Positions 17,087 through 62,200 of a DNA stretch of 64,000 nt are shown here, one piece after another (position 1 is the stretch's first letter; each line of letters starts with the position of its first letter). The translations under genes were made by a program, and so were the position numbers. The stretch comes from Marsupella aquatica (lineage: Eukaryota; Plantae; Marchantiophyta). The stretch covers positions 18,976,857-19,040,856 of the forward strand of contig OZ316893.1 of NCBI GenBank assembly GCA_973895155.1, given 5' to 3'. The notes beneath the pieces were generated by a model. It had not been told where the DNA came from. It ran no database searches and saw only the letters and a program-made list of their open reading frames with translations.

Positions 17087-17088
17087 AT

Positions 17089-29851: not shown

Positions 29852-30519
29852 GCCTACGCATGAGATAGATAGTACAATTTAGCAGAGTGCACGGACAATA
29901 CAATTTAGTGCAGTGTACAAAAAGTACAGTGTAGCATATAGACTAGAGTGGCAATTGCTACTGCAATGAAATGTTCACACACATGTGCAGAGTAGACATA
30001 CTTTTTGGTTTGTTGAGCCCACACTAAAAACTGATCCCCTCGTACAATAGCTCCACCTACACCTCAATTTTGTGGCTATGATTCACCAAAGGAGATCTGC
30101 AACAAGATTTAATGCATTTGAATCACATATAACAGTCGTGACATGTAAAATAGGCATTTTTGAACAGGATTGGTATCAAGCAGTGTGATCAGGGTTGTAA
30201 TTTATACATCCTAAATAGGCTATGATAGTGAATGAGACAAATAAGTTAGGCAGAAATCACTTTTTCCAGGTTATCACATGGCCCATTAATTCCAGTCTTT
30301 GAAAGGAGACTTTTAAGTGAGCTTGCTAGCCTCTTAAATTAGGATATTGTACTTAGTGCAGCCATAATAGGATAAGTTATGTACTGTTGACCCTAAACCC
30401 TGGACCCAAAATTGGTCATAATTCAAAATCTTAAGTAAATATCCTCTCTGTTCAAGTCAAAGTGTTAAGTTATAGGTCAATGGTCTCTGGTTTGTGCATG
30501 CGGTGTGACAAGTGGTCCT

Positions 30520-30969: not shown

Positions 30970-33900
30970 AAGTGTTGCTTTTGTGGAGATGTCGTGTGTT
31001 CACGTCCTCTGATAAGCACCTTCGATCAGCAAGGTGAGCAGGAGCTGTACTTGCCTCACCAACAACAACCAACCTTAAATTATCAGTTCCCACTCACTGT
31101 GTCATTCCATTGGTTCCAGCTAGGGGTCACAGTGTAAACATAGCATGAAACACTCCTAATCAACTTGCTTACAAACTACAATATCCAGAAAGAGTGAAAG
31201 TCTCACCCTCCAGTGAGCAGCAGAGAGGTAGTTCACTAGATGTGTTGATGTGCAGTTAAACCTCCACTATTGCTTACTTCTGGTGTATGCTGCTCAGAAG
31301 AAGACATATTAGTAGCAGCAAATTGCAAATAATGGCCATAAGCAAACCGTGAGAGTTTGCAGAATGCTACGACAAATCCATCACAGCAGTGCTCCACAGG
31401 AATGAAACCAAGCAAAATTTGGTGACCTCGGCCAATGACAAGGCCAATGTAGTGAACAATCCTTGACCGATCAGGATATGGATTGGAATTACAATTAGTC
31501 AGCTCTTCTTCTTTGTTTTCTAACTCTGGGGGAAATGAGCATGACCAGGGAATTCTTTGAGAAATAGAAGTGCACAGGGAAAATGAAATTGGCTCATTCA
31601 GCTGCGCAAGACCGGCCATTGCAGCAAACTTGGACAGTTGTTCTGCAATACATAAAATACCCTGACTTACATGCAATCGATACAATCTGCTTCTGTTGGC
31701 TGTCCTATAGCTCACGGTAGTGCCGTTGGGATAGGGTAAGTGAATATTGCCATAGCTGAAGCACATTGAGCTTGCAGCAAGAAGTGAAGGAGCATGGCCA
31801 AAAGCAGAAAAGACAGACAGGTTTTACAAGAAGAAACTAACAACCGCCAATCTGCTCAAATCCGCTGCATAGATCAAACCCTCCAAACTACACAGCCCTC
31901 CTTTGAAAACAATCCAATGTGCTTTGGCTGGTGGATGACAAGGACTGGGAGAAGAGGAAACGTCTACACAATCAATCCCAATGACGGGACACAGAGACCA
32001 GGCACAGAGAGGATTTGTGCTTAGACAAAAACCACAAATTGTAGCATGGGCGCCATAGCATTGGGCGGCAATGGGAAGAATTACATCAAATGAGTGGACA
32101 GAGAATGAACAGTCCGGTTATAGGCAAACAGCGACTGATGCCCTGATGCAATGAAACACGCATTGACATAGCGGAGGGACATAAAAACTACATAAGCCAA
32201 CTTACTGACCTTTTAAGGCCCACAATTTCAAGGGGAGGGACAAAGACAGCAATAACAGACGCAGAGACAAAGCTGTACTCTGTCAATTGAGTAGGCAAGT
32301 GGGTGGGTGAAGATCAACAACCAATGTAGCAGCGCAACCAGAGTAGCAACAAAGAAGCAGGTTGCCCTCAGTCTCCTATTTTTCAAGCAGCTCGTGCTCG
32401 CGGTCAATCTCCTATTCTGCAAGCAGCTCACGCTCGTCCCTCTTGTTCTGCAAGCAGGTCATTCTTGTCGGCGATGGTGCAAGCTGTCCTCCTAAACTCT
32501 GACACTCAAAATGAAAAGACCAAGCACCTCCAATCTGTTTGATCCCTTCTGCAAGCAGCCGAGCGGCAGACGATAATGTAGGGATCAAGAACCAAGTGCC
32601 AGACGGACATTGCACAAAATGAGGACCGGGGGCAGAGACAAAATCTACCGAAATCTACCGAAATCTACTTCTTGGGGTCCAGCCCACGGATGGACATCAT
32701 GCAAGGTGGTCAAAAATGGTAAGTGCAATTGTTGGAGAGTTGTACTCGCGATTACTAACGGTGCATCCACAAAACGCGTCATCAAGTTGTCAGTGCGGCC
32801 ACAACAATTTTGACAATCTCAGGATCACAGGTCCACAAACAAGTTGCAAATGAAGACACACAACGTCCAGGAGGGAAAGTCCGCAACACTAACCCTTTGT
32901 AAAGCCCCCGAGCTTACCTTCTAGCTGCCGACGCAAAGAGAAAACCTACTCGGACACTGAAGCAACCCTAAACTCAAAGTCTCACCTTAGCGCAACAACT
33001 CCTGGATTGGATTCAGCTAGCTCAGGCTCAATGAAGCATGTCGCCTCGGGCTCTCCGGATCCTCCCAAGGCAGCAAACAAGTTAGGGTCCACGGTCCTTG
33101 TACCTTCACCGCACCGTTGTGTCCTTCCCAATGCCTCCTCTGTAGTTGCGTCTTGTCTGCAACTCTACAGCTCCTCGTGTTGCTCTGCCGCACTTAGTTA
33201 TATTCCAACGCCCGATCGTGACCAAAAAGAGTTTTCTCCTGCTGGACAGCACTAGGCATTTGTTCAATCTCTTGATCACGCGTAAGCAGCTACAGGTATG
33301 AATCACTCAGTTGGCAGCTCAATACGCTTACAGCAAGAGGGCGCAATAGGTAGAAGCTCGCGCTACCTAGACCAGCACAAGGACAAAGCATTAACATTGA
33401 AACTGTACCATGGAGCTAGAGAAAACCACAGAGTAATTGAAGCCTAACAATACCCTTCTTAGCTCCCGACTCCAAACTCTTGGCTCCCAGTTTGCAAGAA
33501 CAAGCACTATGAAAATATGGATTCCCACATTGACTGTGTCCGCAGAACAGATGCAACCCGCATGCAACTTCACCAGCTCAACGGCAGCTTGACAACTGAA
33601 GGACCTCCCAATGAGCCTCACGGCCTCCCGATGCTCGTTATGGGTGCAGCAAAAGGGTCTATACCACAACTGTGACCGAGATTGTCACCCAAAACCTTGA
33701 AGAAACCCCAACCTCCGACTCCTCAAACTCCGACAAGCTCCTCACGAATGTTGCAGCAGCCACAACCTTCTTCGCCCTACCAGCCAAAAACTAAATGTCC
33801 CTAAAGGAGATCGAGCAGGAATGCAGGTCTATGAGTAGACTGCAAGCGCAAGGTTAGATCACTGCAACTGCCTGAACACTGCTCCTCGAGAGCATAAACA

Positions 33901-35367
33901 AGCACATAACGCGCGGGAAGTTCACTCCGCAATGGTCGCAAAAAGTGGGCAACACTGAAAGGAAAACCCTACGTAAAACCCCGAACACTCCACCCCTCAC
34001 GTTCTAAGTTCAATGACAATGGCGAAAACTCCAAAGAGACTCCCAAAGTGAAGTTTAGTGCCTGAAACCGAATTAGGGGAAGCCACTCAGCCTTACCGTT
34101 TGAGTGAGCCGTTGAGTGTCACCCAAAGTGGGACAAAGCTACAAAGTGTTACTGCATGGCCAACTTAGGCAATGAATGGTCATATTTGCACATACATGGT
34201 CGGTAGTGATATTTTATTGCACGCCGTAATCAGGATTAAGGTTGCCCAACATTATATCCGGTCCTAAAATGCAATATTCCCGGTGCAAGAATGTGACCTA
34301 GCTCTAATGTATGAAAAAGGACCGGTACAAATCTACCTTTGTGCATCTTGACCTTTTATAGATGGATTTAGTAATGGCCAAGAATATCTTGACCGTCCCT
34401 CCATGGTCCAACCTCCATGAACCCCACTTCATTAAACCCAAAACCTTTTTGGTCACAAATAAGGAAATTTAATGAGTTATGCCCCTTGCTATCACCCTCT
34501 TTATAGATTTATTTTTTTGTTTGAAATTTTACATTTATTCCGCGTGAACCCCACGGATGGGGGAACCAGTAGGCCAAATGGCATCATAAAACCTCAACAC
34601 CCAAAGGAGGCAATAACAAAGAGTTACTCAACCAGGGTCATCAGATCAGGCAAAGATTGCGAAGCCGTTCTTCTAGTGGTCCATGCAACAAGTAACAACT
34701 AGGGAATAAGCACTAGAAGGCGCAGTAGGTCAGCATAGTGTAAGTGTAAAGTGTCAAAGCATTGTCTAGTACTAAATTAATCCACCTGATTAGTAAGAAG
34801 GGGGTGTATACTGTAATGGGAAAAAGAAAAAAAAACCAAGGCATGAGCAAGGGCCACCAAGAGTGGTGCAGCTATAAGCTATAGGGATTGAACACAATGC
34901 GGGGGGGCAGTGGCACTATGTATGAGGAAATCACGGGAGTATCGGTGTCAAATGAGTCGACAAAACTCCCAGATAGCCACACAGTATAAATCAATCTCAC
35001 AGAAGGCTGCCATCAATGGAGGAAACAATTTGACACGACCCACATCTGAGAGTGTGAATTCGCTCGATCTCTAGCAGTTCTTTGGCACTCGATAGACGTC
35101 GGTGCTTTCGGCTCAAAGATGAAGGAGAATTACCCCTCCTCAACATAGAGTGAACATTACCCATGATGTGCTAGACTATTCACCCTTCACAAAGTAGCAA
35201 GGTTACTTCTCATAGTCTTTTAGTGAACCATAAAACTCTCATAGTCTTTTCTAGTCTTCAACAAAACCGGTGCAATGGGTGCGAGTCGTTTTAAGTATGG
35301 AAAAAGGACTTAGTGGGCATAGTCCTATAAGGTATGGTCTAAATTGCCCCGGTTTCTACTAGTGTAT

Positions 35368-40523: not shown

Positions 40524-43500
40524 CACTAGTAGAAACCGGGGTAATTTAGACCATACCTTATAGGACTAAGCCCACTAAGTCCTTCTTCCATACTTTAAAT
40601 GACTTGCACCCATTGCCAAGGTTTTGTTAAAGACTATAAAAGACTTTGAGTGTTTTCCGGTTTAGTTAAAGACTATGAAAAGTAACCTTGCTACTTTGTG
40701 AAGGGTGAACACTCTAGGACATCATGGGTTTTGTTCTTGGAATCACTCTAAAGGTCCACACAAAGACTAGTATAAGACAAAGTCTTACAAGGGTTCATGA
40801 TAAGAGTATACTTAAGAAGGACCGCGCGACATCCTACTTTTGGGCCTAAGTGCTTAAGGACATGCCTTGTATATATCACCAACCTTAACTAACATTGCAC
40901 CATAAATATCCATGTAACGGGTACTTTTCATAACTTAGGGTACAACTGTACTGGAGGGCTTAGGGTGGTTTCTAACCAGAACCGGAACTAATGCATCACT
41001 ATAACCCTAGCTAGGTACAACTCCCACACCATGATATATTCCGCATTGCCAACTAGTGTTGTTTTGACAGGGTCATGGGCACTAATTGACACAATGAACA
41101 GTCCACAACTTGATTGATTTGAGTGTAAATGATGGTGCCTTTTGATCCAAGATTAATTCCACAAGGGGGGGGGGGGAGGGTTAGGGGGGCCCACAACTAA
41201 TTAAGTGGCCATGACTTTGTCACCAAAGGGATTTATTTAAAGTTATCCTTAACCCTCTTTAGTTTTGTGTGTTGCCTAACACTCTGGCGCAAACGTACTT
41301 ATTATGCTCAACGGGTCACCTCAACGGAAACGAGCTTACATGACTGCTTGCACTAAGTATTGGGTTAGGGTGAGTGTGCTTTGGTCATCAGGTGATTATT
41401 GGGTTTTTGTGAAGGGAACTATCGAGTACTTGCGCCCATGTGTTCGGGCCCCATTGTGCGACAGAACATTGTGCTTTGCTTCTATGAGTGGAGCATACGA
41501 GTAGGGTTTAGGGTTAACATTTTGCGAGGGAAGCTGGGAGGCGATTGTAGTCAATTGTTGCCATCCACTCCTGCGAGCGCTTTTGACAGTTCTACCTGCA
41601 TGCCCCTTACAATTGTTTGGACAAAGGAGTTCAGTAAGTGGTTTGCGCTGGTTTGGGACCTTGACAGTCGTGAGGTGGTAAGGACATTGAGGCATCCCTG
41701 AGAAGCGCTTGATGGTAAGGACATTGAGGTGTTGGAGACATTGAGGCGTTGCGGACATTGCCTTAGAGGCTCTTGAGGCCAGTGACAGCTTTTGGCGCGA
41801 AGGCAAGCGGAGATTTGTCTCCTGCCTGAGAGCTGACAGCTTCGGATTGAGACAACGTGGGCGCACCAAGATTCAGAGAAGACTGACTGGCTGGGACCGA
41901 CCGGTCTTGGGAAGTTGCAGCCGTGGAGGGACCGGGAGCGCTAAGGTACATTGCAGCTACGAGCAGCAATGCACCTGCCATAGTGACATTGAACTGCCCT
42001 GAATCACCCTGGTTAGTCCAAACTTCCATTTGCAAGTTAGTTTTGGTAGTGGCTTTGGTTTTCTAGGCGGAATGAGCTCCGATGCCATGCATTAAGAATG
42101 TGGGAAATGCTATTTTGTAGCTTGCTACCTCATAGTGCTAATTTCAACTTCAGGTTTGCGTGGTTTTGGGCGATAAGCTTGTGGCTCATTCGGACTGAGT
42201 GACCTTCCTGCGGGCCCTGCCCTAAGTGTTCACACTTCTCGCCGTCCCAAACTGCGAAAGGCTTCTCCCCATTCTGTATCCCTGCTTCAGTAATTGTATT
42301 GAGGTCTTTCAATCAGTCTCATAGGGGAGGTCATTGTCTTCTCTGTAAGTTGTTGCTCCTATCGCACTACCAAGCTTGTTGAAGGGAGCTACTATCGCGA
42401 GCTGCTACCATTGCGAGCTACTACCACCGCAAGTTGTTGAGGAGAGGGCCAATTGTTTGCGAAAGGATTTCCAGATTGTGTCGGAGGTCCAGATTTCTTG
42501 CTTGTGGGTCCCCATGTTTGCAGTTTTTTCCTGGCTTCTTGCGCAGTGCTCCGACGTAGTACCCATGATGCTAGTCTGAACGGATTCATGAGTTGTGACT
42601 GATTTGCTGTTCAAATGATGTCTTCAACTAGAGCTACAATTAGTGTCTGTGGAGCTACCAACCAGGTCCAGGTGTGATTGAGGTCAGTTCAACTGTTGGG
42701 TTGCCCGAATGTTCCGTTGCCATCATTTGTAACCACGAGCAATGGACTTTAGAGGCGGGATTTTCTAGGGATTTCTGCTCAACCCTTTGCTGGCTTTCTA
42801 CTTTGAGGTCTATTTTGGGGTTCGGGCAAAGGGCGGAGGGCAAAGATCAAGCATTGCAGTTTTGCTAACGCTGCATGGTGGAAATTGGACCAGCCAACTC
42901 CTTGTCTACGGTGTTGTGGAGCTGGGCGAGCTGCGACAAGGGACCAAGCCAGGTGACCTGTGAATCAAAGCCCATTGACCGCTGCTGAAGGTTTGATGTT
43001 CTATATTTGAAGCTCTCGTTTGCTTTCTATTTGTCAGTCTTTCACAGCTGCGCATTAGTGTTGGCCCTATCCTCCGTCCCTCTGCTGGCCTGCTACTGAC
43101 ATTTGGTTAATCATAGTTGTTCACTGCTGTGCATTAGTGTTGGCCCTATCCTTCGTCCCTCTGCTAGCCTGCTACATTTGGTTAATCAAAATGCAATGTC
43201 TGTCTGAGTGAGCTGATCATCTCCAATGTAGTATGGGCTTGGGATTTACATATATGTTTCCTGCTTCCAGCAGATAGGCAATTGCTTCCAAGCTCTTTGG
43301 TGCAGACGTCTCTATGGAATGCAATGCCCTATATGCCAGAGCTTTCATATATTGGCATGTTCACATTTGCTCTTGGAATATATGATCCCGAAAGCTTCAT
43401 GAGCAGTTTATGTTCAGAATTCTGTTTATGTTATTGTTTCCGTCAATTGCAGCTTGGATTTTTGAATATATGTCCTGTCATTGATGATAGAGGGTGGTTG

Positions 43501-44729
43501 AGATTGGTTTTCTTTCTTCTTGGTAGTGGGTCAGTGTGTTGGCATTTTCCTCATGTCACTCATTCTCATCGGACGAGCTGCGGATTGGTACTGAATAGTC
43601 ATTTAGCCTATTGCTGCCTCCCACCGCCATTGCCGATTGCCGCTATCATCGTGTATTGCTTGCTTGCTTGCCACTGCCTTTGTTGGTTGCCACCCTCTTC
43701 ACACTCTCTCGCATCTATCTTCCGATATGAATGCGCAGCCAAGCCCAGCAAAAGCTCTGTCCCTACAATCCCTCCCAAATCAACTTCCTTGTTTCTTGCT
43801 GCTCATGATCACCGCATTGTTCTTCCCTATTTTTGTTTACTTATTGGTCTCTCCACACTTGTTGCTTCACATGACTATTTTGCTCCTCCCTGGATCCGAA
43901 CATGCCTTGTGCCCAATGCTCCCACGGTGGAGTGGGGTGGTGAATAGACGACCTCAACACCATTGCAATCACATTTGGATGGGTTAGTTTTTTGCAGCTT
44001 AAACCTGTCGGGATTTTGCGCTTGTGGCGACGCTATCCTTTCTGCCACTTCATGAGTTTGTTTATGCTGCAGTGGGCGGTCTTGCGCAACTCAATGAGCC
44101 AATTTCATTTTCCCTGTGCACTTCTATTTCTCAAAGAATTCCCTGGTCATGCTCATTTGCCCCAGAGTTAGAAAACAAAGAAGAAGAAGAGCTGACTAAT
44201 TGTAATTCCAATCCATATCCTAATCGGTCAAGGATTGTGAACTACATTGGCCTTGTCATTGGCCGAGGTCACCAAATTTTGCTTGGTTTCATTCCTGTGG
44301 AGCACTGTTGTGATGGATGAATAGTTGTCGTAGCATTCTGCAAACTCTCACGGTTTGCTTATGGCCATTATTTGCAATTTGCTGCTACTAATATGTCTCC
44401 GACTGAGCAGCATACACCGGAAGTAAGCAATAGTGGAGGTTTAACTACACATCAACACATCCAGTGAACTACCTCTCTGCTGCTCACTGGAGGGTGAGAC
44501 TTTCACTCTTTCTGGATATTGTAGTTTGTAAGCAAGTTGATTAGGAGTGTTTCATGCTATGTTTACATTGTGACCCCTAGCTGGAACCAATGGAATGACA
44601 CAGTGAGTGGGAACTGATAATTTAAGGTTGGTTGCTGTTGGTGAGGCAAGTACAGCTCCTGCTCACCTTGCTGATCGAAGGTGCTTATCAGAGGACGTGA
44701 ACACACGACACTCCACAAAAGCAACACTT

Positions 44730-45179
44730 ATGGTGAGGACCCGCAATGCTGAACATGTGCGGCTTGCACGCAAGGCAGAGATGTTGCACCTTGAGTATGT
44801 CAGACTTGGGATCCTTCCAGCCCAGTCTGCATGGTACTTTGAGTACCCAGTTGTTGCCAGGAATAACTACAGTCGCCCTATACCTGCTTCTCCACCCTTC
44901 CCAACATCCTTGGTATTTTTGTCTTTCGTACATGACCCGCCACAAATTAGGGCCCAAGGGTGTGTGCACAATTGCCAGTATGACTGTCCTGCCTGTAGGG
45001 CTTCTGGCCTAGAGTTGGATGACCGTTCTCTTGGATGTCGGTTTTTTCATAGAGCATAGTGTATCATCTGGAACCACTCGCCATCCTGTAGTGTGCCTGG
45101 CGATGTCACTTGTCCTGCCCTCCCAGACCCCACCACCGGTCACTTTGGTGTCTACACATGTTTGGATCACACGTTGTAG
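44730..45179 (+). pseudogene. Cys/His-rich hypothetical ORF, copy 2 (premature stop at 45057-45059)
   Basis: Homologous to 30520-30969, with a Gln codon replaced by TAG. Confidence 0.4.
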
Positions 45180-45848
45180 AAGACCACTTGTCACACCGCA
45201 TGCACAGACCAGAGACCATTGACCTATAACTTAACACTTTGACTTGAACAGAGAGGATATTTACTTAAGATTTTGAATTATGAGCAATTTTGGGTCCAGG
45301 GTTTACGGTCAACAGTACATAACTTATCCTATTATGGCTGCACTAAGTACAATATCCTAATTTAAGAGGCTAGCAAGCTCACTTAAAAGTCTCCTTTCAA
45401 AGACTGGAATTAATGGGCCATGTGATAACCTGGAAAAAGTGATTTATGCCTAACTTATTTGTCTTATTCACTATCATAGCCTATTTAGGATGTATAAATT
45501 ACAACCCTGATCACACTGCTTGATACCAATCCTGTTCAAAAAATGCCTGTTTTACATGTCACGACTGTTATATGTGATTCAAATGCATTAAATCTTGTTG
45601 CAGATCTCCTTTGGTGAATCATAGCCACAAAATTGAGGTGTAGGTGGAGCTATTGTACGAGGGGATCAGTTTTTAGTGTGGGCTCAACAAACCAAAAAGT
45701 ATATCTACTCTGCACATGTGTGTGAACATTTCATTGCAGTAGCAATTGCCACTCTAGTCTATATGCTACACTGTACTTTTTGTACACTACACTAAATTGT
45801 ATTGTCTGTGCACTCTGCTAAATTGTACTGTCTATCTCAGGCGTAGGC

Positions 45849-46529
45849 ATGGCACGCCCTAAAATCCGAGCCAAGAAGCGGGAGACAGAGGTGAGCAACA
45901 CAGGTGTAGTTGGGCCAGATGGTATTAACTTCTCTGCAAGTCAGATTTTCCAGAAGGCAGCTCATTGTTGTGCCATTTGTGACGATGGTGGTGGCTTAGC
46001 CATATGTGAGGGCCCTTGCATGAGGCATTTCCACCTCAACCCGGAGTCTGACCTTGCTGCAGAAAACAACTGTCCAGGGGTGGGCCTCCCGTCAGCACAC
46101 CAGGGAGGCTGGATGTGCACTGATTGTTTGGAGAAGCAGGCTAAGTGTGCACAGTGTGGGAAGTTGGGGTCTTATGAGGGCTCTGTTGATGCTCCACCAC
46201 TTGTTAGGAAATGCCCTGACAGATATTGTGTGAGGTTCTTTTGTTTTTCATGTTTGCCCGATCTTGCCACAGCTTGCCCACTTCATAAGTGCAAGGCATG
46301 TGGTCAGCACGATGAAGATTTCTGGGTGGACATAGTCCACTGTGTTAGGTGTCCCACCATGTGGCACTTTCATTGTTTGAAGGAGCGTCAAGCAGAAGGC
46401 TATGCTTGTGACAGACACATCTATGATCACTCTGCACATGGTGTTGATCGATGGATCTTCTATTGTCATCGCCATGCCATAGATCCTACTTTGCACACTC
46501 CCATGAGAGATCACATTTCTTGGCTTTGA
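45849..46529 (+). CDS. EDM2-like composite PHD-finger protein (CACTA cargo), copy 2
   Basis: 226 aa, with 4 amino-acid differences from copy 1 and all Cys retained. The N-terminus MARPKIRAKKR is NLS-like. Confidence 0.85.
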   Translation: MARPKIRAKKRETEVSNTGVVGPDGINFSASQIFQKAAHCCAICDDGGGLAICEGPCMRHFHLNPESDLAAENNCPGVGLPSAHQGGWMCTDCLEKQAKCAQCGKLGSYEGSVDAPPLVRKCPDRYCVRFFCFSCLPDLATACPLHKCKACGQHDEDFWVDIVHCVRCPTMWHFHCLKERQAEGYACDRHIYDHSAHGVDRWIFYCHRHAIDPTLHTPMRDHISWL

Positions 46530-47127
46530 ACCTGAATAATGTACATGCATAGTGCACCTGATGTGGATACCTTGGAGATTGCAGACATTCCAATTTTGAG
46601 AAGAAGGACCTCTGTAGGAGAGGATGCTTAGGCAACAAGTACCCTAAGTTCATTACTTGTTCCTGGGTACATGCCTTCAAAAACTCCCCTTAAGCCTTCT
46701 AGGAACTTTTTTAACTCTGCAATCATTTTGATCACGACTTACATGACACTGCTTAAATTAAATCAGGACTTCTCATTATGAGCATATAAGTTACAAGGCT
46801 ATTTAATTTGCGAGAATTCCCTTAAAGTGTACCAACATTTTGTATTGTCATTGAATGTCTGCCCATTTACAACATCTGTATGTGGCATCACAAAACAATT
46901 GCACTTGTCACCTTCAATATTGTGAAGGCACATATTCAAACTATGAGGTGCATGCTTGCAGGTGTCTAGTACGTTTGTCCCAATATTTCTCCCGTTTGGA
47001 ATCGGAGCAGAGACTCACCAGACGACTGGACTGGACCAAGTTATAAATGCAGCATTTTAAGGGCCCTTCGATTATCAGGTGAACGCATTATCTTCCGGTC
47101 TGCAGTGATTAGGTGGCCCGTGTGTAC

Positions 47128-47976
47128 ATGGCCTCTAGGAAACGTACAAAGGTTGACCACCCGCCTCTGTTGGCTGGAATCAAAGCCATTTTGATTCCTG
47201 ACCACTATGGGTTCACCCAAGTGAGTTGGCCAATCGTACAAAAACGATTCTCAGAGTTCCATGGGACTGAAGTCAAGGACATCACTCCACAGACTACACA
47301 TGTTGTTGCGGGGACATGGCTGGATGTGATGAACAAGTGGTCATGGTCCTTCATTGATTCTGCCATTACCAACCAAGGTCTAAAAGTAGTTGAAGTCTCT
47401 TGGCTGACCGATTCTGTTAAACATAGGTGTGTACAGAGTACTGAGCAATATGAGTTGTGGGAGAGTGAGGAGGCCACTGCAGAGGCTTTGGCTGAAAAGG
47501 AAGCCTATGAAGCAGCGGCAGAGAAACCCAACTTTGCTTCTGTCCAATATGGACCTGTTGTCAACATAGGACACCATCCTATGCGTGCAGATGCTATATT
47601 GAATGAGCATGGCAAGGAGAGAAATACCATTATGAAGGGGTTCAGTGTGGTATTTGCAGAAGAAGGAATTGGGGAGACTAAGTGCAGATTGTACAAGTCT
47701 ATAGTTGTTGAGCTAGGTGGGACAGTGGAGGAGAGTCTAACAGAAACCTCCACTCATGTTGTAGGTCTGTCATACATGAAAATATGCAGAAAATTCTTTA
47801 AGACAACAGTGCATGATTTTGTCATGAACAACAATCTTTGGGTGCTTTCCCCTGATTGGCTTCTAGAATCAGCAGCTAGAGGGAAGCGACAGAATGCTTG
47901 GGACTTTGATATTTTTGAGGCCTGGCCCTCCAAGATTCAGCGGAGATGTATGCTTAGCAAAGGTGGGAGAGAGTGA
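47128..47976 (+). CDS. Tandem BRCT-domain protein (CACTA cargo), copy 2
   Basis: Intact, with 2 amino-acid differences from copy 1. First ATG at 47128. Confidence 0.85.
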   Translation: MASRKRTKVDHPPLLAGIKAILIPDHYGFTQVSWPIVQKRFSEFHGTEVKDITPQTTHVVAGTWLDVMNKWSWSFIDSAITNQGLKVVEVSWLTDSVKHRCVQSTEQYELWESEEATAEALAEKEAYEAAAEKPNFASVQYGPVVNIGHHPMRADAILNEHGKERNTIMKGFSVVFAEEGIGETKCRLYKSIVVELGGTVEESLTETSTHVVGLSYMKICRKFFKTTVHDFVMNNNLWVLSPDWLLESAARGKRQNAWDFDIFEAWPSKIQRRCMLSKGGRE

Positions 47977-48116
47977 GGAGTAGGAGTCCCTCATATTTTT
48001 ATATAAATCACAATTTTGTAATAAATGTGATCCTTGAACTAACTCATCTTGTCATGGTTGGTCGTAGTTGAAGTGATTGTTGTTTCCTGCTGCGTGGGGT
48101 GTGACTGTGAATCTAC

Positions 48117-48686
48117 TTGCTGGGCTCTGTTTGGCTGAAGACTTTGGTGGGTATGCTGCCTCTTCCAGACCGTCAGGCCCTATGTAGGGTCCTCCTATGG
48201 GTTGCATCGTGCATGGCTACTGCTTGGGCTTACTTGTGTGGATTGGTAACCAGACAGAGTGTAGCTCCATCCGAGATAATGCCTGCAGACCTTGGATGTG
48301 TTGTGAATGCTGTGGTGAATGAGGATGCACAGTCGGAAGAGGACATTTACTTTTCAGCAGATGAGTTAGACAAGCACGATGCTGTAGGTGGTTCCTTGTT
48401 GCCTGATTTGGCAAATGATATAGTTCTTACACATGTCTGGCCGAGGGTTCTTGTGGTGTCTGGCGCACAAGATATCTGCAAATATAGACTAATTAGTACC
48501 CAGTGGAGGGACTTGGTAGCAACATGTGCACCATGGAGGGCACTACTGCCACTGCTTGTAGGCACGGATCGAAGACCACCATGGCATGAGCAGGGTTTAG
48601 ACCTTGATGACTTAATGTACATGCCTGAGTACCTCAGGGCTGAGTGGCATCGACAACAGGATTGGTATCCGTATTTGATGTGGTAG
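48117..48686 (+). CDS. F-box-domain protein (CACTA cargo), copy 2
   Basis: LLPDLANDIVLTHVWPRV...KYRLISTQWRDLV, with 3 amino-acid differences from copy 1. First ATG at 48153. Confidence 0.65.
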   Translation: MLGSVWLKTLVGMLPLPDRQALCRVLLWVASCMATAWAYLCGLVTRQSVAPSEIMPADLGCVVNAVVNEDAQSEEDIYFSADELDKHDAVGGSLLPDLANDIVLTHVWPRVLVVSGAQDICKYRLISTQWRDLVATCAPWRALLPLLVGTDRRPPWHEQGLDLDDLMYMPEYLRAEWHRQQDWYPYLMW

Positions 48687-49012
48687 TAAGATGAGGACAT
48701 CTCACACCGGTCTCGCACCTGGCACCTGTGTCTATGACTATACATGATTGGACTCTGATATGGTCATGGATGTACGTGCAAAGGCAGTACATGTGAGGAC
48801 AGCGGAGGAGTTGACACCCTCAAACATTTAGGAATTTTGTCTCATTCACTTGAGAATAGGTACATGACTCAGGCACCTATATTTTTTGTTTTTTTGTTTT
48901 TTTGGAACGTTATGTATTTTGGCAAGTACAGTCGGGGGTGAAATCCTTAACAAGAAGTGTATTTTTCACTTGCATAATAAAATGACAGGGTGCTGAGTGC
49001 GTGTGTATAGTG

Positions 49013-52000
49013 ATGGCTCCAAGGTTGCCTCTTCACAACCCATTTAGGATTAGGCATCATGATTCTAAATTATGGATGCGTGAACAAGCCCGGGCCGCCC
49101 AAGGTAGGAGTAGGAGGATGAGATGCCCATGCACACAGTGCCAAGGATTCAAGTCGTTGAGTTTGAACACTGTGCACCTTCACCTGCTGCGGCATGAAAG
49201 GCACCCTCGGTGGAGGGTTTGGAATGTACCAGCAGAAGAAGACTCCTCTGATGAAGAGTGGAGAGCTGACTTTGTGGATTCTAATACAGCTAGGCGTAGA
49301 GACTACGTAGAGCAGGACATAGACTGTGCAGAGGATGGTCCTGGGGTCCAACATGAGAACGTGGATGACCAAGATGGAGATGTAGAGGCAGTCACTGAGG
49401 ACGGTGGGATGGATGTCCCAAGAATGGTTCAAGAGATTTTTGAAGACCTTGATGCTTTTTACGACACAGTGGAATCAGAAAAGGACAATGAACCGCAGCC
49501 ACACATTGGCGACGGCCAAGCTGAACCTGACTTTGACATTGGGGAAGGTGCAGCAGAGAGGGAGTGGGTGTTTGGGGGCCCAAAACACATCAAAGAAGCT
49601 TGCATTCCTATCTACGAGGGGTCGAACTGCTCCAAGCTGGGTTTTGTCGTGTTGTTGTTGAACATCTGTGGCAATCACAATGTTCCCAATATATTTGTGA
49701 CAGAGTTGTTGACCTTCCTGCGCCGAAATGTGTTACCAGATGGTAATTCAATTCCAAAAAATATGTACGAGGCTAGGAAATTGATGTCTAACCTTGGGCT
49801 GAACTATGTGTCTATTGACGCATGCCCTGATGGGTGTGTTCTCTTTCGCAAAGAGCATGCAGATAAATTGACATGCCCTCATTGTGGTAAGCACAGGTAC
49901 AAGAATGTAGGGAAATGTACACACCCTGCCAAGGTTCTTCGTCATTTTCCTCTCATTCCTAGACTACAACGTCTGTTTAGATGCCCTGCCATTTCCAAGC
50001 TGATGACATGGACTCCTGATAACAAGAGCAGTGATGGCCTGCAGCGTCACATTGGAGATTCCAACCATTGGAAATTTGTTGATGAGAGGTGGCCACAGTT
50101 TGCTGCAGAGAAGCGGAACTTTCGATTTGGTCTATCACTGGATGGAGTAAACCCATTTGGAGACAAAAACAACCGTTATTCATGTTGGCCGGTTACGCTG
50201 CTAAATTACAACCTTCCCCCATGGATGACTACAAAGAGGTTTTTTGTCATGATGGTGCTGTTAATCCCTGGACCAGCTTGTGTGACCGAGCAATTCATAG
50301 ATATCATGTTGGCTCCAGCAGTGGAAGAGTGGAAGACTTTGTGGATAGAAGGGGTGTTAACCCATGATGTTCTGAAGGGGCTTCTTCGACCCAGCCCCTT
50401 TAGACTGCATGCAATTTGTTTGCTGGATATAGCAGATTACCCAGGCCATGGCATCATATCTGGACGAGTGACAAAGGGCTATGTGGGGTGCACACCATGT
50501 GGGAAAAATGTGACAAGTGAGTGGTCGCATGCCCTGCACAGTATGAAATTTCAGGGGCATAGAAGGTATCTGCTTGTTGATCATCCTTACAGGCACACAC
50601 GGTCTCAAATTGCACACTTCAACAACAAAACAGAGCTTCGTGGCCCACCACAGAGGATCACCAGAGAGCAAGTCCTGAGGTGGGCAGCCAGGAAGGCTGA
50701 TTGGGACAAGAGAAGTGCCACTGATCGAGAACCTGAGGATCCAGTGGTGAAACACGGTGTGAAAAGACAGACCTTGATGGACTTGGAGTTGGAGTACTGG
50801 AGGGTAATGTACTTAGCCTCCAGCCCCTGTATGATTGCAATTTTAGATTGGAGCAATGGTGGATTGATGTTGGTTACAATCCTCCTATGTGGTTAATTAG
50901 TGTTTCTGTTGTTGAATTCTTTGCTTTGTGGAGTGCAGGAATTCGAGCCCAACAAACACAATGTGGACGTCATGCACATTGAGAAAAATATTTGTGAGAG
51001 CTTGCTGAAGTTCTTGTCGGGTGAGAAAGATACAGGAGCAGTTCGAGCTGATATGCAACAGAAGGGGATTCGCCCTCACCTTTGGTTGAAGCCCCATGCA
51101 AGCAATCCCAATGTACTTCTCAAGTTCCAAGCTCCCTATGTGTGCACACAGGATGAATGGAAGACATTCTTGTATAGATTGAGCTGTCTGAAAGTGCCCT
51201 CTAGCTATGCTGGTGCCTTCAAGAAGCATATTACAAAGAATAAACTTGGCAGTATGAAAACACATGACTACCATGTGTTGATGCAGCACATTCTGCCCCT
51301 ATGCCTCAGAGGTCTCATGCAGAAACCAGTCCGTAATGTCATTCTTCGACTGTGCAATGTATTTCGCCGTATATGTGTGAAAGTGTGGGATCCCCAAGGA
51401 TTGGAGCAGTTGAAGCAGGATGCTGCTTATGTCCTTTGTGACTTGGAGATATACTCCCCCCTGCTTTCTTTGATGTTATGACTCATCTCCTAATCCATGT
51501 GGTAGAAGAGCTAGGGCAGTATGGGCCAGTCAGTACCAGATGGATGTACCCTATGGAGCGATACATGAAGTTGTTGAAAGGTCATGTGAGAACATACTAC
51601 AGGCCAAAGGCTTCCATGGCATTGGGGTACATTAAGGATGAGACGTTGGGATTCCTAACAGAGTACATGGCTGGGTCTGGTGAAGCTATGACAAGAGTTT
51701 GGAAATCTGGTGAAGATGATGGAGTGAGTGGCGAGGTTGTTGAAGGTGTGGGACGTGCTGTTCAACTGCCTGTTGCGATTCGAGACAAGGCTCATTCATA
51801 TGTGCTGGCAAACACAGAGCCTATGCAACCATGGTGGAGGTGAGTGATTGAATTGACTTGCCTTTGTTGTGATGCTTCTTGTCTGTTCCAAGGGTGATCT
51901 TAGGTTGTCATGTGTTGTTTAGACCTAACTATGCCTGTACCTCATATTGCAGGGAATATGATATGCAAAAAGCTGCACACTCTGGGTAGCAGGATCCCTT

Positions 52001-52712
52001 CCCACAGTTCGAGAAGTGGATTCGGGTGACAATTCGAGAGCATAGTAGACATCACCCAGATATGGAGAAGGATTTGTATCTTCTATCTGTGCCACCATGA
52101 TTGTCTATTCTGACCTACAAACGGATGAGAGCTTATGGAAATCATTATCGAGTGAGGGATGAGCAGGGTGACCATTGTGTATCATATGATTGTGGTTTGA
52201 TTTCTGTGTTTGAGCAGAGAACCTCTGAAGAACAGAGGGGGTGGATGAAGATGGGTTACGTGGGGGAGTTGACCGACATTTGGGTGTTGAATTATGGTAA
52301 CACAAGTGTCCCAGTGATATTGATGAAGGGATCATGGGTGAAATCAGAGTGGCAGAGACCAAGGGCCACCATGAAGCGTGATCATGATGGGTTCTTGTTG
52401 GCCAATTTTAGGTCCAGAGTACCAGAATGGTCTGAGCCTTTTGTTTTCCCTAGCCAAGTTGAACAGGCTTTCTTTGCAGATGTGGAGGAGTCACATGGCT
52501 GGAGGGTGGTATGCCATAGCCAAGCACGGAACAGGCGGATGGATGGAAGTAAAGTAGAGTTCAGTTTGGATGACCATGCTGCATTCGAGCATCCTAGTCA
52601 TGAGACTGTACTTCCAACTCGGGCAGGGACTGACTACATCCCCTTAACATTGAGAGAGACATATGATGAACCTGGGCAAATGGAATATGATGAGGTTGAT
52701 GATTTGCAATAG
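49013..52712 (+). pseudogene. tnpD: CACTA TnpD DDE transposase, copy 2 (introns about 50804-50938 and 51840-51952)
   Basis: Same domains as copy 1. GT-AG introns rejoin the frame. There is a 1-bp deletion near 51455 (FPPAFF motif) and stops at 51987 and 52098. Confidence 0.93.
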
Positions 52713-52889
52713 GCAACAGCTGGCGATTGGCAAGTATGAGGTTGAGGATGACTACCTGCACAGAGTCACAGAACGGGAATTGCTGCCTGGAATGATGTTT
52801 AGGATAGTTGGATATGCATGAAATTGATTGATACTTTGAATTTAGTGTGCTGATTCTCCCTGTTTGGTTGTGGGTGCTGTGCAGAAGCT

Positions 52890-55800
52890 ATGGGGGAAGA
52901 GGGTGATGACATGGAGACAGACATGGGGCTTGGAGAGTGGGGTGAAGAGGAAAGATTGGATATGGATGGAGACCCAGATGCAGGGGGCTCACAGAAAAAT
53001 GCACCTGTGCAAGATGCACAGGGCCCTCATCAAGTCCCAGGTAGGTGGGCAGCTAGAGAGAAATCACATAATCCATACCCTAGAAGGAGCCAGAGTTATT
53101 GGCAAGGGACGCCTGATAATTATGATGATGACTATGATGGAGCAGAAGATGGATGGGATGAATATGAACACCCAGAGCGTGGTAGAGACGGGTACAGAGG
53201 GCAATGGAAAGGTGAGGAGGATGATTGGACAAGTAAGTGCCTTGTGCTAGTGATTTTGTGATGGTAGTAGAGATTTAGCTCAATATGCACTTATCTGATG
53301 TGTAGCTAGGGCAAAGAGTTTATCTTACAGGTCCATGAGTGTGGCATGTACCTGTTGGTATGCAGACTCTGATTGGGACAATCACGAAAACAACAAAGGC
53401 CATCCACGTTCAGATAGGAGGCAATCATTCACAGGCGGGAGAAACGCCCCTAATTCATCAAGACAAAGCAATAGGACAGGTGGTCCAGAACCATCTATGC
53501 GCTAAGGGAGAGGTAACTTGGTCATTGCTTGCTCTGAAGTCCACTGTATATTTGGCAGCGGGATTTATGATTCATACTTACCTAATGTAAGTGACTGTAA
53601 ATGGATCCTGTAAATGTGCAGGGACTCCAGGGAGGTTTGGACAATGCAATCCAGGCCGTGGGGGGAGATCAGGCCGTGGAGGGACCCCAGGCCGTGGGGG
53701 GACACCAGGCCATGGAGGGACACCTAGTAGCGCTTCAGGGAGTACCAAGGCAGGAGACAGTAACAAATTTGGTAAAGTAGAAGTGAATTCCGAAGGTTGG
53801 ATAACTCCCACATGTGATGGTAAGAACCGTTGGCATTCTGACCTAAGAGGAGAAGTATTGCGTTGGTTAGATTTGAGCATTATAGAGTTTAGGAGTCAGA
53901 ACAAAGCTGATTGGGCTGCTATCTGCAAGGACATTCTTGAACGGTGGGAGTATGTTGGTAATGATGGTAAGGGCCCAGTTGAAGATTGCATATCAGATTA
54001 TGCAATGAGGATTTTGAAACAAGAGAGGCATAGGTTGAAAAGGATGTGGATAGACAATGGTTCTAACAGGAGAATGCCACCACCCCCATCATTGGAACTG
54101 GATCAATGGACACGGTTAATCAAAGGGTTCATGTCGGAGGCTGGACAGAGCAAGAGTGAACTGATGTCAAATGCTCGAGGCAAAGTGAAACACCTTTCAC
54201 AGGCTGGGAGAGGAAGTTATGCTCCAGTGAAAGAACAATTGGTAAGGCAGTGACATGCCTGATAGTAAGCCTCAAACTTATCATCTTGCTACCATTATTA
54301 CATTTTCATTGACAATCAACACTTGGTTTCATTCATATGTATGTTGATGTGGACTACAGAAGAAATTGACAGGTGAAGAACCATCAGCACAAGAAGTGAG
54401 AGAGGAGTTCATGAAACAAAGGAGTGAGGTGACAAGTGTAACTTCCAAACAGGTGATTATGTTGTAATTCTGTATGTTCTGTGACTATTTGGCCTTGAGC
54501 ATCAGAAAGAAATGTAGTAGGAAGTAAGCAACCAGTTCTTGGGGACAGTTATCTGAGATATGTAAGTTGTGTTATGACAGGGAACTGTTACAACTCTCAT
54601 AGAGATGTGTGAACGGTTGAAGTCATTAGAGTGTGGACTCCCTTGAGTGGAAAGTAAATTGGCTGATCGTTTGGATATTGTGGAGGCATCTGTAGCGAAC
54701 CTTCTTGCATGAGTGGAATCTAATTTCAAGCTTGTGATTGAAAAATTGGGTGGTTCCCAACCAAACAACGAGGGCAACATTGTACAAAGTGTGCCCTTGT
54801 TAACAAAAAAGGGAATTGGCAAATCTGACACAGGTATGGAAATGACACCGGCCCATTGTTCATTGTGTCCTATGTTCAAATGTTAGAAGTAAGTTTTCAT
54901 GAATTGAGTGAATGGTTTGAATGCAGGAAGAGTGGAGGCAGAGAAGGACCCTGTAATCAGTAAGCAGAAGGGCAAGAAGGTTGCTGAGACAGGTAACCTG
55001 CTATGATCCAGTACATTACATTTGAAAAGTGCATGGAGTTTTGTGAAGCTTAAGCCGGTTGGAGGTAATCTTTTCTGTAAGAACTGGTTGGATGAACTGG
55101 GATCTGAAGTGACATCATGATTGATGTATCAGGTGATTCAAAGAGCAATAATGAAGAAGATGTGCCCAGTGCCTCAGTGACCATAGCCAAGGAGGTATCA
55201 GGTAAGCTGATGCTTTAAATTCCTCTATATGAATGTTGAGAAACAATTCAGTGGTTAATAGATTCAACTTGAATATTGTGGTGTGTTTATTGATCAACAG
55301 AAGCAGACATGGAGCATATGGCAATGGCAAAGAAGGGGAAGAAGGCTGTTCATAATGGTAAGGAGATAGTGACAACTTTGTGGTTGGTGACATGTACATT
55401 TAGCACATGTGATGAGTGATTGACTTATGTTGGACATGACACTGAATTGTAGTTGATGCAGAGTTGACAGACTCTCAACCAAGTGGGAGCAGGGTGAAGC
55501 GACGTCGAAACTTGGGAGCAACATTGGATGCAAGTAAGATTGTAGATGCTTCAATTGAAGCAAGTACAATGTTGGCAGATACTGAGATGATGTCACAGAG
55601 AAATCCTGCTACACAATCAGAAGTGTCAAATATGGATGCAGATTCTTTGAAGAAGAGTGTAGCCAATTCTCGATCACCAGCACAAAACACTCGTGCCAAA
55701 GTCATGACTCGCAACCAAGGTATGAATAATGTCATGTATAAGCCACCCAGGAAAGCCAAGAAAAACAGCCAGGGTAAGGTGGAGGTGATAGCCACAGCAG

Positions 55801-56057
55801 AGCCAGTCCATAATCTTCTATCATGGGAGGATGACTCGCAGGTATGTGTGGGTACAGGCATTTTGCGACCGGATCATGCAAAATTCCATGGCAAAGTGGT
55901 CCCGGATGACCATGTAGTAGTGTTGTTGACTACAGTGATTGTATCTGATTGTAATTTGCCATTTCCGAATAGAGACGATGATCCACCTCAGGAAATAATT
56001 GCAGATGCAGTAGGATCTCTTGTGCTTTGGCCATCAGAGTGTGTTAGTCTGCAGTGA
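52890..56057 (+). pseudogene. tnpA: CACTA TnpA-like multi-exon gene, copy 2
   Basis: Acidic N-terminal exon, RGG-repeat plus Transposase_24-like exon (about 53620-54241) and Tnp1-like last exon. Stops near 53503, 54644 and 54710. Confidence 0.75.
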
Positions 56058-56888
56058 CTGAATGCAAGTGTAGATAGAATCATGTGAATTGTGTCACATT
56101 TTGACATTGCCTTGGAAAGATCCAAGAAATATCTGTACCAATTTTTCCATTTGGTAAAGAGGATGAAGGAGCCGTTGTGTGTGACATTGATATTTCTGAA
56201 TTCTGTATGTATGAAACAAGTGATTGATGTCAAACTATGGCTCTATGGTGATTGTCTATGATATTTGAATATGTTTTGTATCATTTCAGTATTAGTGTGT
56301 ATGGTATAGAGGAATACTTTGTGACCTTCTTTGTAGTCTATGAAGTTTGAATCTGTGAATTCATATTAGTGTACATGGTATAGAAGATGGCTTTCTGAAA
56401 CTATGTATTCTAATGTTAACATGATGAATGGTGAACTTATAGAGTGAGTTCATTCCAAGTACACAATAACACATGAATGCAATATGTTATTTGTGCACAA
56501 GAGTGGGTTCATTCCAAGTAGTATAGTGGGGTCTTCATCACTCATATCCAGTTGACATGAAAGACTTATACATACCCCACAAAGTATATTTAAAGACTAC
56601 CCTCCATAATCTTTTTAGTCGTTCCCAACGACTTACCATCTCAGCCCATAAAAGACTGAAAACGACTCACCAAAGCTACCCACACAAAGACTAAAATAGA
56701 CTAAAAATCCAGTCTATTAAACGACTTATAAACCAGTTCTATAAAGGACTCAGTTGATTATAGTAACAAAACATACGACTCGCAGTCCTATAAAGGACTG
56801 GAGTCCTTCCCAGTCGTTTCCAAGTCCTACACGGTACTGAATAGTCATTTAATGGGGTCTAAATACCCCCCGGTTTCTACTAGTGGGA

Positions 56889-58902: not shown

Positions 58903-58904
58903 TT

Positions 58905-59238
58905 TGTTAAAGATTGCTCTTAGTCTTGTGACTCATAGATTACGACACTTAGGCTAACCATAGGTACGGTCTTAGCTGAGGTTAGGTTAGTCGTGTGTGA
59001 CCTTGTATATACCAGGGCTAGTGTAAGCCGTTGGGGTGTAGTGCTTGTTCATTGTAATGAAGCAACTTGAGGAAGAGAGAGAGCCTACAGTGTGTTCGAC
59101 TACTCTAAAGTAAAGTTGTTGTGTTCATGTAGACGTAGCCTTGGAGAAGAGGTGAACCACGTATGGATTGTGTCGACTATGTGAGCATGTGATGAGTCAT
59201 GATTGTATCGTTATGAAGAAAAATGTCATAGTTCAACA
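58905..59238 (+). repeat. Copia 3' LTR
   Basis: TGTTAAAG...TTCAACA, a direct repeat of 16753-17086. Confidence 0.95.
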
Positions 59239-62200
59239 ACTTTTGTCAATTTATTTGAGGCACTTAGAAGTCTCAAAAAAGTTTGAAACTCATATAGATT
59301 ATACGTAGTAGAGTACCCTAGAAAAGTTTTGTTTCATTCAAACAATTAGTTTAGAAGTTAAAATTAGGATAAGATCACTGTTTATTACTGCAAACACTGA
59401 TTCTTTGCAAAGCGTCCGACCCAAATCTTGACGCTTCTTGAAGCGTCCGCTACATTTTTTATGCTTTTGAGACATCCATTTCCAGCACTTTACTTTTTCC
59501 ATCTCTTCTAAGATTATCTTTTAGATATTCAAGGTTTGAAAAGTCATGTTTCTTCAGTTCCTTTTTGTGTTAGAATTCTCCACCTATAAGATCCATTTGT
59601 TTACCAGTTCCAGGGGGGACAAAACTTTATTCAATAATCAAAATTTTGGATAGTTTTCCACCTTCCATTTTAACAAGAAGGTCTAAGTGTATGGAAGTAA
59701 ATCATGTGTTATGATGTGTGAATGAATTCAGGAGATTCCTTTTGGTGACTAAATTTTAATCACAAGCTTTTGAGATTCCCATCGAATTCAGTGTTAGGCT
59801 TGCTTGCTGTGTCAAGAATCACTAGCTAATTTGAGGATAGATGTTTGCATTAAAAGAGCAAAATTCCATCTTCACAGTATCATAGTACCATTGTTTTACT
59901 TTGGTATATGTATTAGAGTTTGATTTGAATTGCGTATCGCTGATAATCAAACCATGTTGACGGCATTTTAATATATATCTTAGTAAAACCAACCAGAAAT
60001 GTATTGTGAATTTGGTGAGCAAAAGAAACCTTTATTTCACATCTTATGATTCCAAAAGGAAAGAGAGAGTCTGGTTTGATAATTTTAATCCTGCCTATAC
60101 TAAGACCATAGTCCTTTCTAAACGAGTCGCAATAGCAAATTGAAACAAATCTATTTGCAGAATAGACTTCCTTTTGATTTCATAACTCAAAAATTATCTT
60201 TTCCCTATGTTTTTGTTAATTTTATCTTTATTTGAGATTGATAGTTTTAGAGCAAGAGCTCTAAGCTACTCAAATATGTTAATTCAGTCAATCTATTTCC
60301 AACTTGTTCTTTAAGGGACCAAATTCTGAGTTTATAAAAATATTTGTTACTTTGTGTTCTTTCGGCCATACGACAACATAGGTTTGGATAGAACCTTTAA
60401 AGGGAAGAGTAAGAATTGTATGGAATGTGGAGTTTGCAATTGTGAACTGTTAAGAAAAACCCTACAATCTTAGAATGAAGAGTAATTTGCAAGTTATGTG
60501 GTAATAGGGAGGCCCAAAGTAGTGGGACATGAAAGAACCCGCTTTTGTTTGGTCCTTTAAATTCAAGTGCATTCCATTTGGGCTACAAAATGCACCAAGT
60601 GAATGCAAACACATGATTGAAAGATGGACGAGAGTTATTGAGAAAAAAAAATTAGAAATTGAGGAATGTACCACAATGGGTTTATAAATCCTCTTTGAAG
60701 AATTATTGATTGAAAGTTAGATGAGATTTAACCTTCAATCCAAGTGACAGGCAGGGCCTGCAACCAGTGAGAGTCGGACCAATGTCTCAAGTAATTGCAC
60801 AAGTTGACACTATCTGATTGTCAGAAAGGCCAGGTAGCAAGTGAAAAGTGCACAAGAAATCAATTGAATTGAGGCGGTACAATGTCTAATTGATACGAGA
60901 AAGGACATTAATGAAAATTGAAGTTATGTTGGATAATTAATTAAAGGATTTGACTAATAGTCAACTTCAAGGGTTAACACTCATTTTAGTAGCAGTTGGG
61001 CTTTGCTTGTCGCCTTGTGCATTTTGTATCTCTAGAAAGATACAAAATTGCATGGCAAGTTTTTAGTTGCCTTTCAATTTGATGATCATTGATTACACCA
61101 ATAGAACAATGTTCAGTTGAGTCCGGATCCACATTTCTTTGAGAATTACTTTGGGATTGGACATGGTGGCCTAGTTTTGGAATTGCTAGTGCCAGATTCA
61201 AAATTGTGTGAAGCTCTTTTGGATCTGGCATGGTGGCTCCGGTTTGGGATTCCAACTCGCTTCTTTCGTCGATGGCGTGCCATTTGGAAGCATTCAAATT
61301 TTTGAGGGCTGCGTCTTTGGTTGGCATCGGGATTACTTGTTTTGAGAATTGTAGTGTTCTCGTTGACAAAACATTGGGTCCGGTATGACATGCATCTTAA
61401 TTGGGTAAGGTGGCTCTGTTCGGGAATTACCTATGTGCTCCAACATGCATCAGCTGGAGCATTCAAATCTCTCGCACACGGTACCATTTGACAATAGTAT
61501 GGAAGTTGTTTAGGATTTGAAAGATTGGCAGAACTCCCCCGTGATATCTCTGCTATAGAAACTCTCAGGTTGGTGACATTTACATGCATGCTTTTCTTAT
61601 TGTAATAACCACCCTCACTACATTTGAAGAGGATATTCACGTCGGATCTGTAATCAGGGTTGTTTTAGGTTTTTGTATATGTAGAAAGAGCCTCGTTCTT
61701 GTGCTCACACTAGTGGAAATCAAGCAGGAATAAGGATGATTGAGAAGTTCTTTGGAAGACATGAATGCGAGGGTTATATATTTGATTGGGAAATGGTCGA
61801 TCCAATGTGTTTTGGGTGCTGTTACTCACAAGGGTACAGCCATCCGCAGAACATAATAACAAGGGATGAACAGAGATCCATATGCTCAATCACATCGCTT
61901 ATCAGATTGCGCTAGTTTTGTATAGTTGGCTGTAGAAGGCTGCCAATCTGATGATCTAATTGCTTGGATCAATCACTCAACGGGTCAAGAAACTTTCACT
62001 TTCTGGATATGCTCAGGAGCGATGTTGAACACCAAACGGCAAAGTCCTTGTGTGCGACAACTGATTTGGCCTCCTATGTCAATTGCTACACTTTGGTTGA
62101 CTATGTCAATGACTAAAATATGCCAAAGGATAAGGCAATTTTGGTTGCGTTACTTCTTGAGTTCAGAGAACATGTCGATTAGGCTATTCATGCAGCCCAG

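Follow-up and report, generated by a model that had tools for sequence, protein, structure and literature searches.

Two complete CACTA transposons lie in the 64,000 nucleotides of Marsupella aquatica DNA analysed here (the window), and each carries an uninterrupted gene for a 226 amino acid protein with an EDM2-type cluster of three PHD fingers. Very probably the gene has an accessory function, of whatever kind, and is kept by selection. The ORF, its second copy and the EDM2-like motifs attributed to them by the original prediction were all recovered on translation, the tail of copy B reading HHHAIDP; the assertion that a transposon encodes them was borne out by the termini, target-site duplications (TSDs) and transposase match given in Table 1.

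The two CACTA elements and their genes

Both elements have CACTA-type terminal inverted repeats (TIRs) and perfect 3-bp TSDs, as expected of CACTA/EnSpm elements, with GACT-type subterminal repeats at either end. They lie 5.2 kb apart within the same Copia (identity between its two LTR-like repeats, 90.9%), and in a self-comparison of the window the 12.8 kb that they share were 98.7% identical, in inverted orientation. Placed in opposite orientation in one decayed Copia, the two elements form a 12.8-kb inverted repeat with a 12.4-kb spacer. A further inverted repeat pair (1.5 kb, 88% identical, 1908-3414 and 14654-16133) lies to the left of the Copia and possibly represents the termini of another element.

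Table 1. Features of the window; positions are counted from its first nucleotide.
Feature	Position	Strand	Details
Older Copia retrotransposon hosting both CACTA elements	16751-59239	+	LTR-like repeats 16751-17087 and 58903-59239
CACTA element B	18813-35364	-	16,552 bp; TIR CACTAGTAGAAACCGGGG; TSD TAT/TAT
Stand-alone EDM2-type triple-PHD ORF, copy B	29171-29851	-	Intact; 6 nt / 4 aa differences from copy A
CACTA element A	40524-56885	+	16,362 bp; TIR CACTAGTAGAAACCGGGG; TSD GGA/GGA; GACT-rich subterminal repeats
109-aa ORF with Cys cluster	44730-45059	+	Stop codon differs in copy B
Stand-alone EDM2-type triple-PHD ORF, copy A	45849-46529	+	226 aa, intact, stop-free
Basic H3-tail-like start ARPKIRAKKR	45852-45881	+	Codons 2-11; 5/10 identical to H3 1-10 in register
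Twin-BRCT ORF	47128-47976	+	282 aa; Pfam BRCT E=9e-15, 2 stretches; intact in both copies
F-box-like ORF	48111-48686	+	First ATG 48153; Pfam F-box E=0.095, weak; intact in both copies
TnpD transposase	49013-52712	+	Several exons; Transposase_21 E=6e-59; Transpos_assoc, DUF4218, DUF4216
TnpA-like gene	52854-56057	+	Several exons, bounds approximate; Transposase_24, weak E=0.014

Transitions between elements A and B amounted to 6.2% of CG, 5.7% of CHG and 0.7% of CHH sites, the pattern expected of CG/CHG methylation after insertion; the elements are exposed to silencing pressure, as is seen in this methylation-type decay of the copies. The CHG observed/expected ratio is near 1 within the element, a value inflated by CG decay. 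Sampled words of the element were present at 39-63% in 5 of the 13 listed runs (three coded organisms), and thousands of contigs mapped onto it in two runs; the element family is thus many-copy. No RNA run was among the 13, which has no bearing on expression. Past their first 213 bp, the left arms (40740-44064 in A and 31627-35150 in B) are unrelated over 3.3-3.5 kb, and their outer termini are 89% identical. Read depth is far lower over the left arm of A, where loose ends at 44063 match the left arm of B, and the region 5' of the cargo genes thus appears exchangeable.

Along one strand, the genes follow each other as 109 amino acid Cys-rich ORF, PHD ORF, twin-BRCT ORF, F-box-like ORF, TnpD, and TnpA-like gene. 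Neither element has the intact transposase of an autonomous copy: in A, a frameshift of 1 nt near 51454 breaks TnpD, in B three premature stops do so, and the TnpA-like gene has one premature stop in B. Close to an exon border of TnpD (51723-51840), one contig of run X2 lacks 116 bases bounded by GT..AG, which could be a spliced or a deleted form. The twin-BRCT ORF gave zero matches at E<=0.01 against the PDB; a stand-alone twin-BRCT protein could recruit or inhibit repair factors. The F-box-like ORF scored 0.90 with an Atlas F-box cluster on 78 shared features, which is a lead only. A Pfam search of the 109 amino acid ORF returned no family; in two runs, the bin that contains this ORF has the greatest summed depth of contigs. 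In run X7, read depth in coding relative to noncoding bins hints that the PHD, second BRCT, and TnpD segments are the conserved parts, a comparison that does not bear on their linkage.

A stand-alone EDM2-type PHD cluster

The stop-to-stop frame of the PHD ORF opens just nine codons upstream of the ATG, and at the DNA level the ORF is thus stand-alone; an acceptor-like AG located 9 nt before the start codon may allow a spliced N-terminal extension. The ORF stops three codons past the tail motif and matches PHD families only. Three PHD families of the NSD type came up in Pfam with sub-threshold scores (E 1e-5 to 6e-3), BLASTP against the PHD region of a grass EDM2 gave 29% identity over 210 amino acids (E=3e-21), and a profile of EDM2 PHD regions matched at E=2e-27 (85.5 bits). 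An AlphaFold model built on a 60-row alignment (pLDDT 72.5, pTM 0.67) contains PHD-type folds; residues 1-35 have pLDDT <50 in both monomer models. Fold searches with the models gave generic PHD matches only (best Z 4.9), and sequence searches found no EDM2 structure.

A search for longer homologues returned only two algal/protist NSD-type proteins, and EDM2 sequences were obtained by other routes. A metagenome scan yielded nine loci: seven grass-like transcripts, L008, which has no long ORF, and L009, which encodes a generic PHD protein. A full-length grass EDM2 from a metagenome transcript was the query that retrieved 120 angiosperm EDM2 proteins. Anatomy was counted in 118 EDM2 proteins with a parsable PHD1 and in seven proteins of the stand-alone family, both window copies included; the features used to tell EDM2 from NSD come from our own alignments and not from a published definition. 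The spacing from the PHD1 His to the next Cys is 10-12 residues in 117/118 EDM2 proteins and 11-12 in all seven family proteins, as against two residues in NSD2 and in protein P0009, and the C-terminal tail motif is present in 109/118 and 7/7, respectively. The long PHD1 insert and the C-terminal DHI tail thus make the PHD ORF EDM2-type, not NSD-type, in agreement with the composite PHD finger originally predicted. The PHD1-3 cluster of NSD1/2/3 does have the same three-finger arrangement, and the profile E value to NSD2 is 1.7e-19, but in NSD2 the 12-residue insert of PHD1 is missing and the match breaks off at position 170 of the 218 in the profile, short of the EDM2-type tail.

Canonical EDM2 and EDM2-like proteins (e.g., P0010 and Marchantia Mp2g00350, our P0143) resemble the PHD protein in their triple atypical PHD cluster, long PHD1 His-Cys insert, final C..H ligand pair, and [TP]xxDH[IV] tail, at ~30-35% identity. 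They are, however, mostly ~1,200-1,600 amino acids long and contain an RFD-like N-terminus and an ELP methyltransferase-like (MTase) domain, whereas the 226-residue PHD protein has neither, its gene is intron-less and transposon-borne, a basic H3-like start replaces the acidic run, and PHD2 is short with Cys in place of a His ligand. The domains of EDM2 and its ASI1-AIPP1-EDM2 (AAE) complex have been described (PMC3632883, PMC7529245, PMC3776765, PMC5364540, PMC9910501); since the PHD ORF encodes neither the ELP domain, which is N6-adenine methyltransferase-like (PMC7529245), nor an N-terminal RFD-like region (a Pfam domain), its architecture is not that of an EDM2 orthologue.

Zinc ligands are strongly retained: 19 columns are invariant across 60 sequences and four others are conserved at >=90%, the last ligand being His. 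An acidic residue three before the first PHD1 Cys is present in 117/118 EDM2 proteins and in 0/7 family proteins, and the net charge of the 20 residues upstream of PHD1 has a median of -10 in EDM2, compared with -3 to +5 in the family. The PHD2 linker is 25-29 amino acids in 114/118 EDM2 proteins but 5-9 in 7/7 family proteins, and position 132, a PHD2 ligand, is His in EDM2 and Cys in the family. Overall, 42 EDM2-conserved positions were kept and 55 changed; W88, C132, W172, and W225 are conserved residues specific to the family. The acidic residues inside PHD1 and all zinc ligands of the cluster are kept, and the missing acidic run before PHD1 could equally be a loss of H3 binding.

Relatives, selection and origin

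About 20 stand-alone relatives of the PHD protein, 32-81% identical to it, have these features in common. A first homologue search found five proteins of 217-245 amino acids (36-81% identity), alike in their MAR start region and DHISW end; an exhaustive search matched 539 proteins at E<=0.001. At least 15 short family members, P0005 among them, are in the 150 matches listed (14 beyond the first five), after which come proteins of the EDM2 family and a few NSD-type clusters of protists; the unrelated PHD or C1 domains that would have refuted the original prediction are not the best hits. The ten aligned family members form one clade, with support of 100/97 and 100/100 in two trees. By eye, about six members trail into unrelated C-termini, which likens them to decayed transposon copies. 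The contigs of distant members are mostly 0.9-2 kb long, and a transposon context is thus beyond their reach. No locus of the family was found in the metagenome scan described above or in the viral contigs scanned; a single weak bacterial match (E=2e-4) among prokaryote genomes was taken as chance.

An intact PHD ORF in two copies ~1% apart is expected by chance. Selection was assessed on sister copies of the ORF in four runs, using 40 of 65 variant rows, those with the best support; 30 single-position rows were scored, and four multi-change codons (10 rows) were set aside. Fifteen of the 30 were synonymous compared with 21-29% expected (p 0.0004-0.011), and these same rows gave a pN/pS of 0.26-0.40. 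Indels were absent from the best 40 of 65 rows, and the two variants in zinc-ligand codons were both synonymous. An apparent stop at codon 134 was really three co-occurring changes encoding Glu. By this measure of sequence change, the PHD ORF is under purifying selection among its sister copies.

Liverworts have a full EDM2 (Mp2g00350) beside paralogues without MTase motifs (Marchantia Mp1g03210, P0146; Riccia P0144; Calypogeia P0141 and P0157; M. paleacea P0155). The latter terminate with the PHD tail or a short way past it and resemble the transposon family in this placement of the PHD cluster, in R[HY]FH within PHD1, in having at most a weak acidic run, and in RCPxxWH, the Trp of which is nevertheless also found in 5/9 non-angiosperm full-length proteins. 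Unlike the PHD protein, they retain 400-540 residues on the N-terminal side, and their PHD2 still has both its His ligand and its insert. A separate EDM2-like protein, P0267, has an N-terminal protein kinase domain fused to it.

Phylogeny upheld the EDM2-family placement that had been predicted, the PHD ORF grouping with EDM2 proteins apart from the protist clusters; its closest kin were the MTase-less liverwort paralogues, which are sisters to the family with support of 96/89 when the long branch P0269 was included and 91/82 when it was not. A constraint joining the family to canonical EDM2 cost 4.96 log units and was not rejected (p-AU 0.14); BLAST scores are level for the two candidate donor groups (112-116 bits). 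The best host proteins found, in a set that did not include the source host's own paralogue, are ~33% identical. A methyltransferase-less liverwort-type EDM2 paralogue is our favoured, though unproven, donor, and methyltransferase loss would then probably have preceded capture by the transposon; such a donor would also suggest a bryophyte host. The original suggestion that the element itself dropped the methyltransferase part thus goes unsupported, with the reservation of the same AU value, since its closest tree relatives already have no MTase motifs. We infer a single, ancient capture from an EDM2-like host gene, followed by trimming and remodelling.

The H3-like start and possible roles

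After its Met, the PHD protein reads ARPKIRAKKR; the corresponding residues of H3 (fetched locus) are ARTKQTARKS. Neither this start nor the neighbouring cargo genes figured in the original prediction. The match in this register is better than in any other upstream of PHD1 and than with the first 20 residues in shuffled order (p=0.0026). Nine of 17 family proteins match H3 at 4-5 positions (p<0.02) and eight do not, but these starts are related by descent and their matches are not independent draws. In 12 chosen starts, A1 occurs in 10, R2 in 12, K4 in 10, A7 in 6, and K9 in 6, and the linker that follows is unconserved. P0004 and P0005 match at only 2/10 positions, and in one sub-clade (P0136, P0285, P0142, P0266), R-x-K lies ~6 residues inside the chain. 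Met would be removed from such a Met-Ala-Arg start, leaving a free N-terminal amine. Many non-angiosperm EDM2-family proteins open with Met-Ala-Arg; the count was 9/26 among hand-picked EDM2-like proteins, in which this start seems to open a folded domain, and 0/120 among angiosperm EDM2 proteins. The H3-like basic start may also be a nuclear localisation signal only.

We give about even odds to the PHD protein being an accessory factor which, by binding H3 tails or imitating them, weakens host silencing of the element. Speculatively, the PHD cluster would dock on H3 tails, and the A-R-x-K-x-x-A-x-K start would compete for the PHD pocket or for the readers and writers of H3K4/K9 in the host; the protein would then be a decoy or dominant-negative form of a host reader and not a copy of the EDM2 polyadenylation function. 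Since both window copies have a broken TnpD and methylation decay, any protection was incomplete. A more elaborate version, which we consider rather unlikely, is that an ancient bryophyte CACTA lineage made an EDM2-like reader into a histone-mimic weapon: the free tail on the PHD cluster would act on host readers and methyltransferases of H3K4/H3K9 as a self-gating H3 decoy, the whole being part of a PHD/twin-BRCT/F-box-like cassette that manipulates chromatin and repair. Intramolecular H3 mimicry at a PHD finger, by a histone-mimicking linker, has a precedent (PMC5663869). If this version were true, the AR start, which algal and liverwort EDM2 and the reader-only paralogues of grasses have as well, would be a sign that the EDM2 family itself uses an intramolecular H3-mimic switch that has gone unrecognised.

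Chromodomains of chromoviruses tether integration to a chromatin state, and the PHD protein might similarly tether TnpD/TnpA to, for instance, repeat heterochromatin; selection does maintain the reader fold, and both elements entered one older Copia. Two insertions do not make a sample, and either local hopping or a genome rich in repeats explains them; the PHD protein has an ORF of its own and is not known to be linked to the transposase. We regard such an integration-targeting adaptor as unlikely. Decidedly unlikely, in our estimate, is an adaptor for a non-histone partner, acting with the F-box-like and twin-BRCT proteins to degrade or sequester, for example, a host silencing or repair factor. 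The three cargo ORFs are indeed consecutive and intact in both copies, and the four family-specific residues and the loss of the acidic run suggest an altered surface, but the F-box assignment is weak.

In one version of the original prediction, EDM2's H3K9me2 specificity and recruitment of the AAE complex would carry over into the transposon protein, which would bind H3K9me2 and recruit ASI1-AIPP1 to secure full-length transposon transcripts. The EDM2-type anatomy, AAE biology as published (PMC9910501, PMC5364540), and the multi-exon genes of the element within methylated DNA fit this; the loss of the acidic residue and PHD2 insert, the His-to-Cys change, and an excess of changed over kept EDM2-conserved positions do not, the favoured donor is another paralogue, and the portions of the EDM2/AAE literature examined contain no case of AIPP1 binding by the PHD cluster alone. 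A faithful EDM2 reader is accordingly very doubtful from the sequence. Finally, CACTA elements do capture host DNA (PMC13317346), and several relatives are frameshifted, as a passive Pack-CACTA fragment with no role might be. Near-identity to a donor is absent among the host proteins found, however, and with the pN/pS values above this does not fit passive capture; nor does an intron-less whole domain that keeps its own conserved start and end across the identity range of the family, together with a derived ligand swap family-wide. We consider passive capture highly improbable and largely refuted.

A histone-binding or histone-mimicking accessory factor would counter or exploit silencing at the level of histone tails. 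VANC of the VANDAL MULEs, a transposon anti-silencing factor (PMC5735166), and Spm TnpA, which activates without H3K9me removal (10.64898/2026.08.24.746577), are likewise encoded by accessory genes beside a transposase and are thought to counter silencing, but both are sequence-specific DNA binders, whereas the PHD protein would be a captured histone-reader fold. A transposon-encoded EDM2-type or CACTA-borne PHD gene is undescribed in the literature searched, which was covered mostly by title and the start of the abstract, with subscription journals and repeat-database entries largely outside it. The accessible parts of the Spm TnpA study mention neither PHD nor EDM2, those of the gene-capture review PMC13317346 do not mention PHD, and those of 10.1101/2024.09.22.614159 do not mention EDM2.

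Transposons of other superfamilies bear PHD fingers or chromodomains (Rehavkus, Academ, Transib/RAG2 PHD, and chromovirus integrases) and are similar in placing a chromatin-reader domain on a mobile element; unlike the PHD protein, these domains are mostly fused to an enzyme. To our knowledge, none of these transposons is a CACTA element or EDM2-derived. The PHD protein is a test case for histone mimicry used by a transposon; being small and encoded by a single exon, it should be easy to express, allowing a direct test of a dominant-negative, reader-only EDM2 module, and its stand-alone family is a natural substitution set for the EDM2 residues that set H3 specificity.

Attention is also drawn to the methyltransferase-less liverwort EDM2 paralogues and to the reader-only paralogues of grasses (P0011, P0012, P0159, P0165, P0183). 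Four of these five stand-alone EDM2-type PHD proteins start with MARK or MARM; they differ from the transposon family in having arisen separately, beside angiosperm EDM2, and in having both the His ligand and the insert of PHD2 still in place. The grass reader-only transcripts (L001, L003-L007) contain intron-like interruptions.
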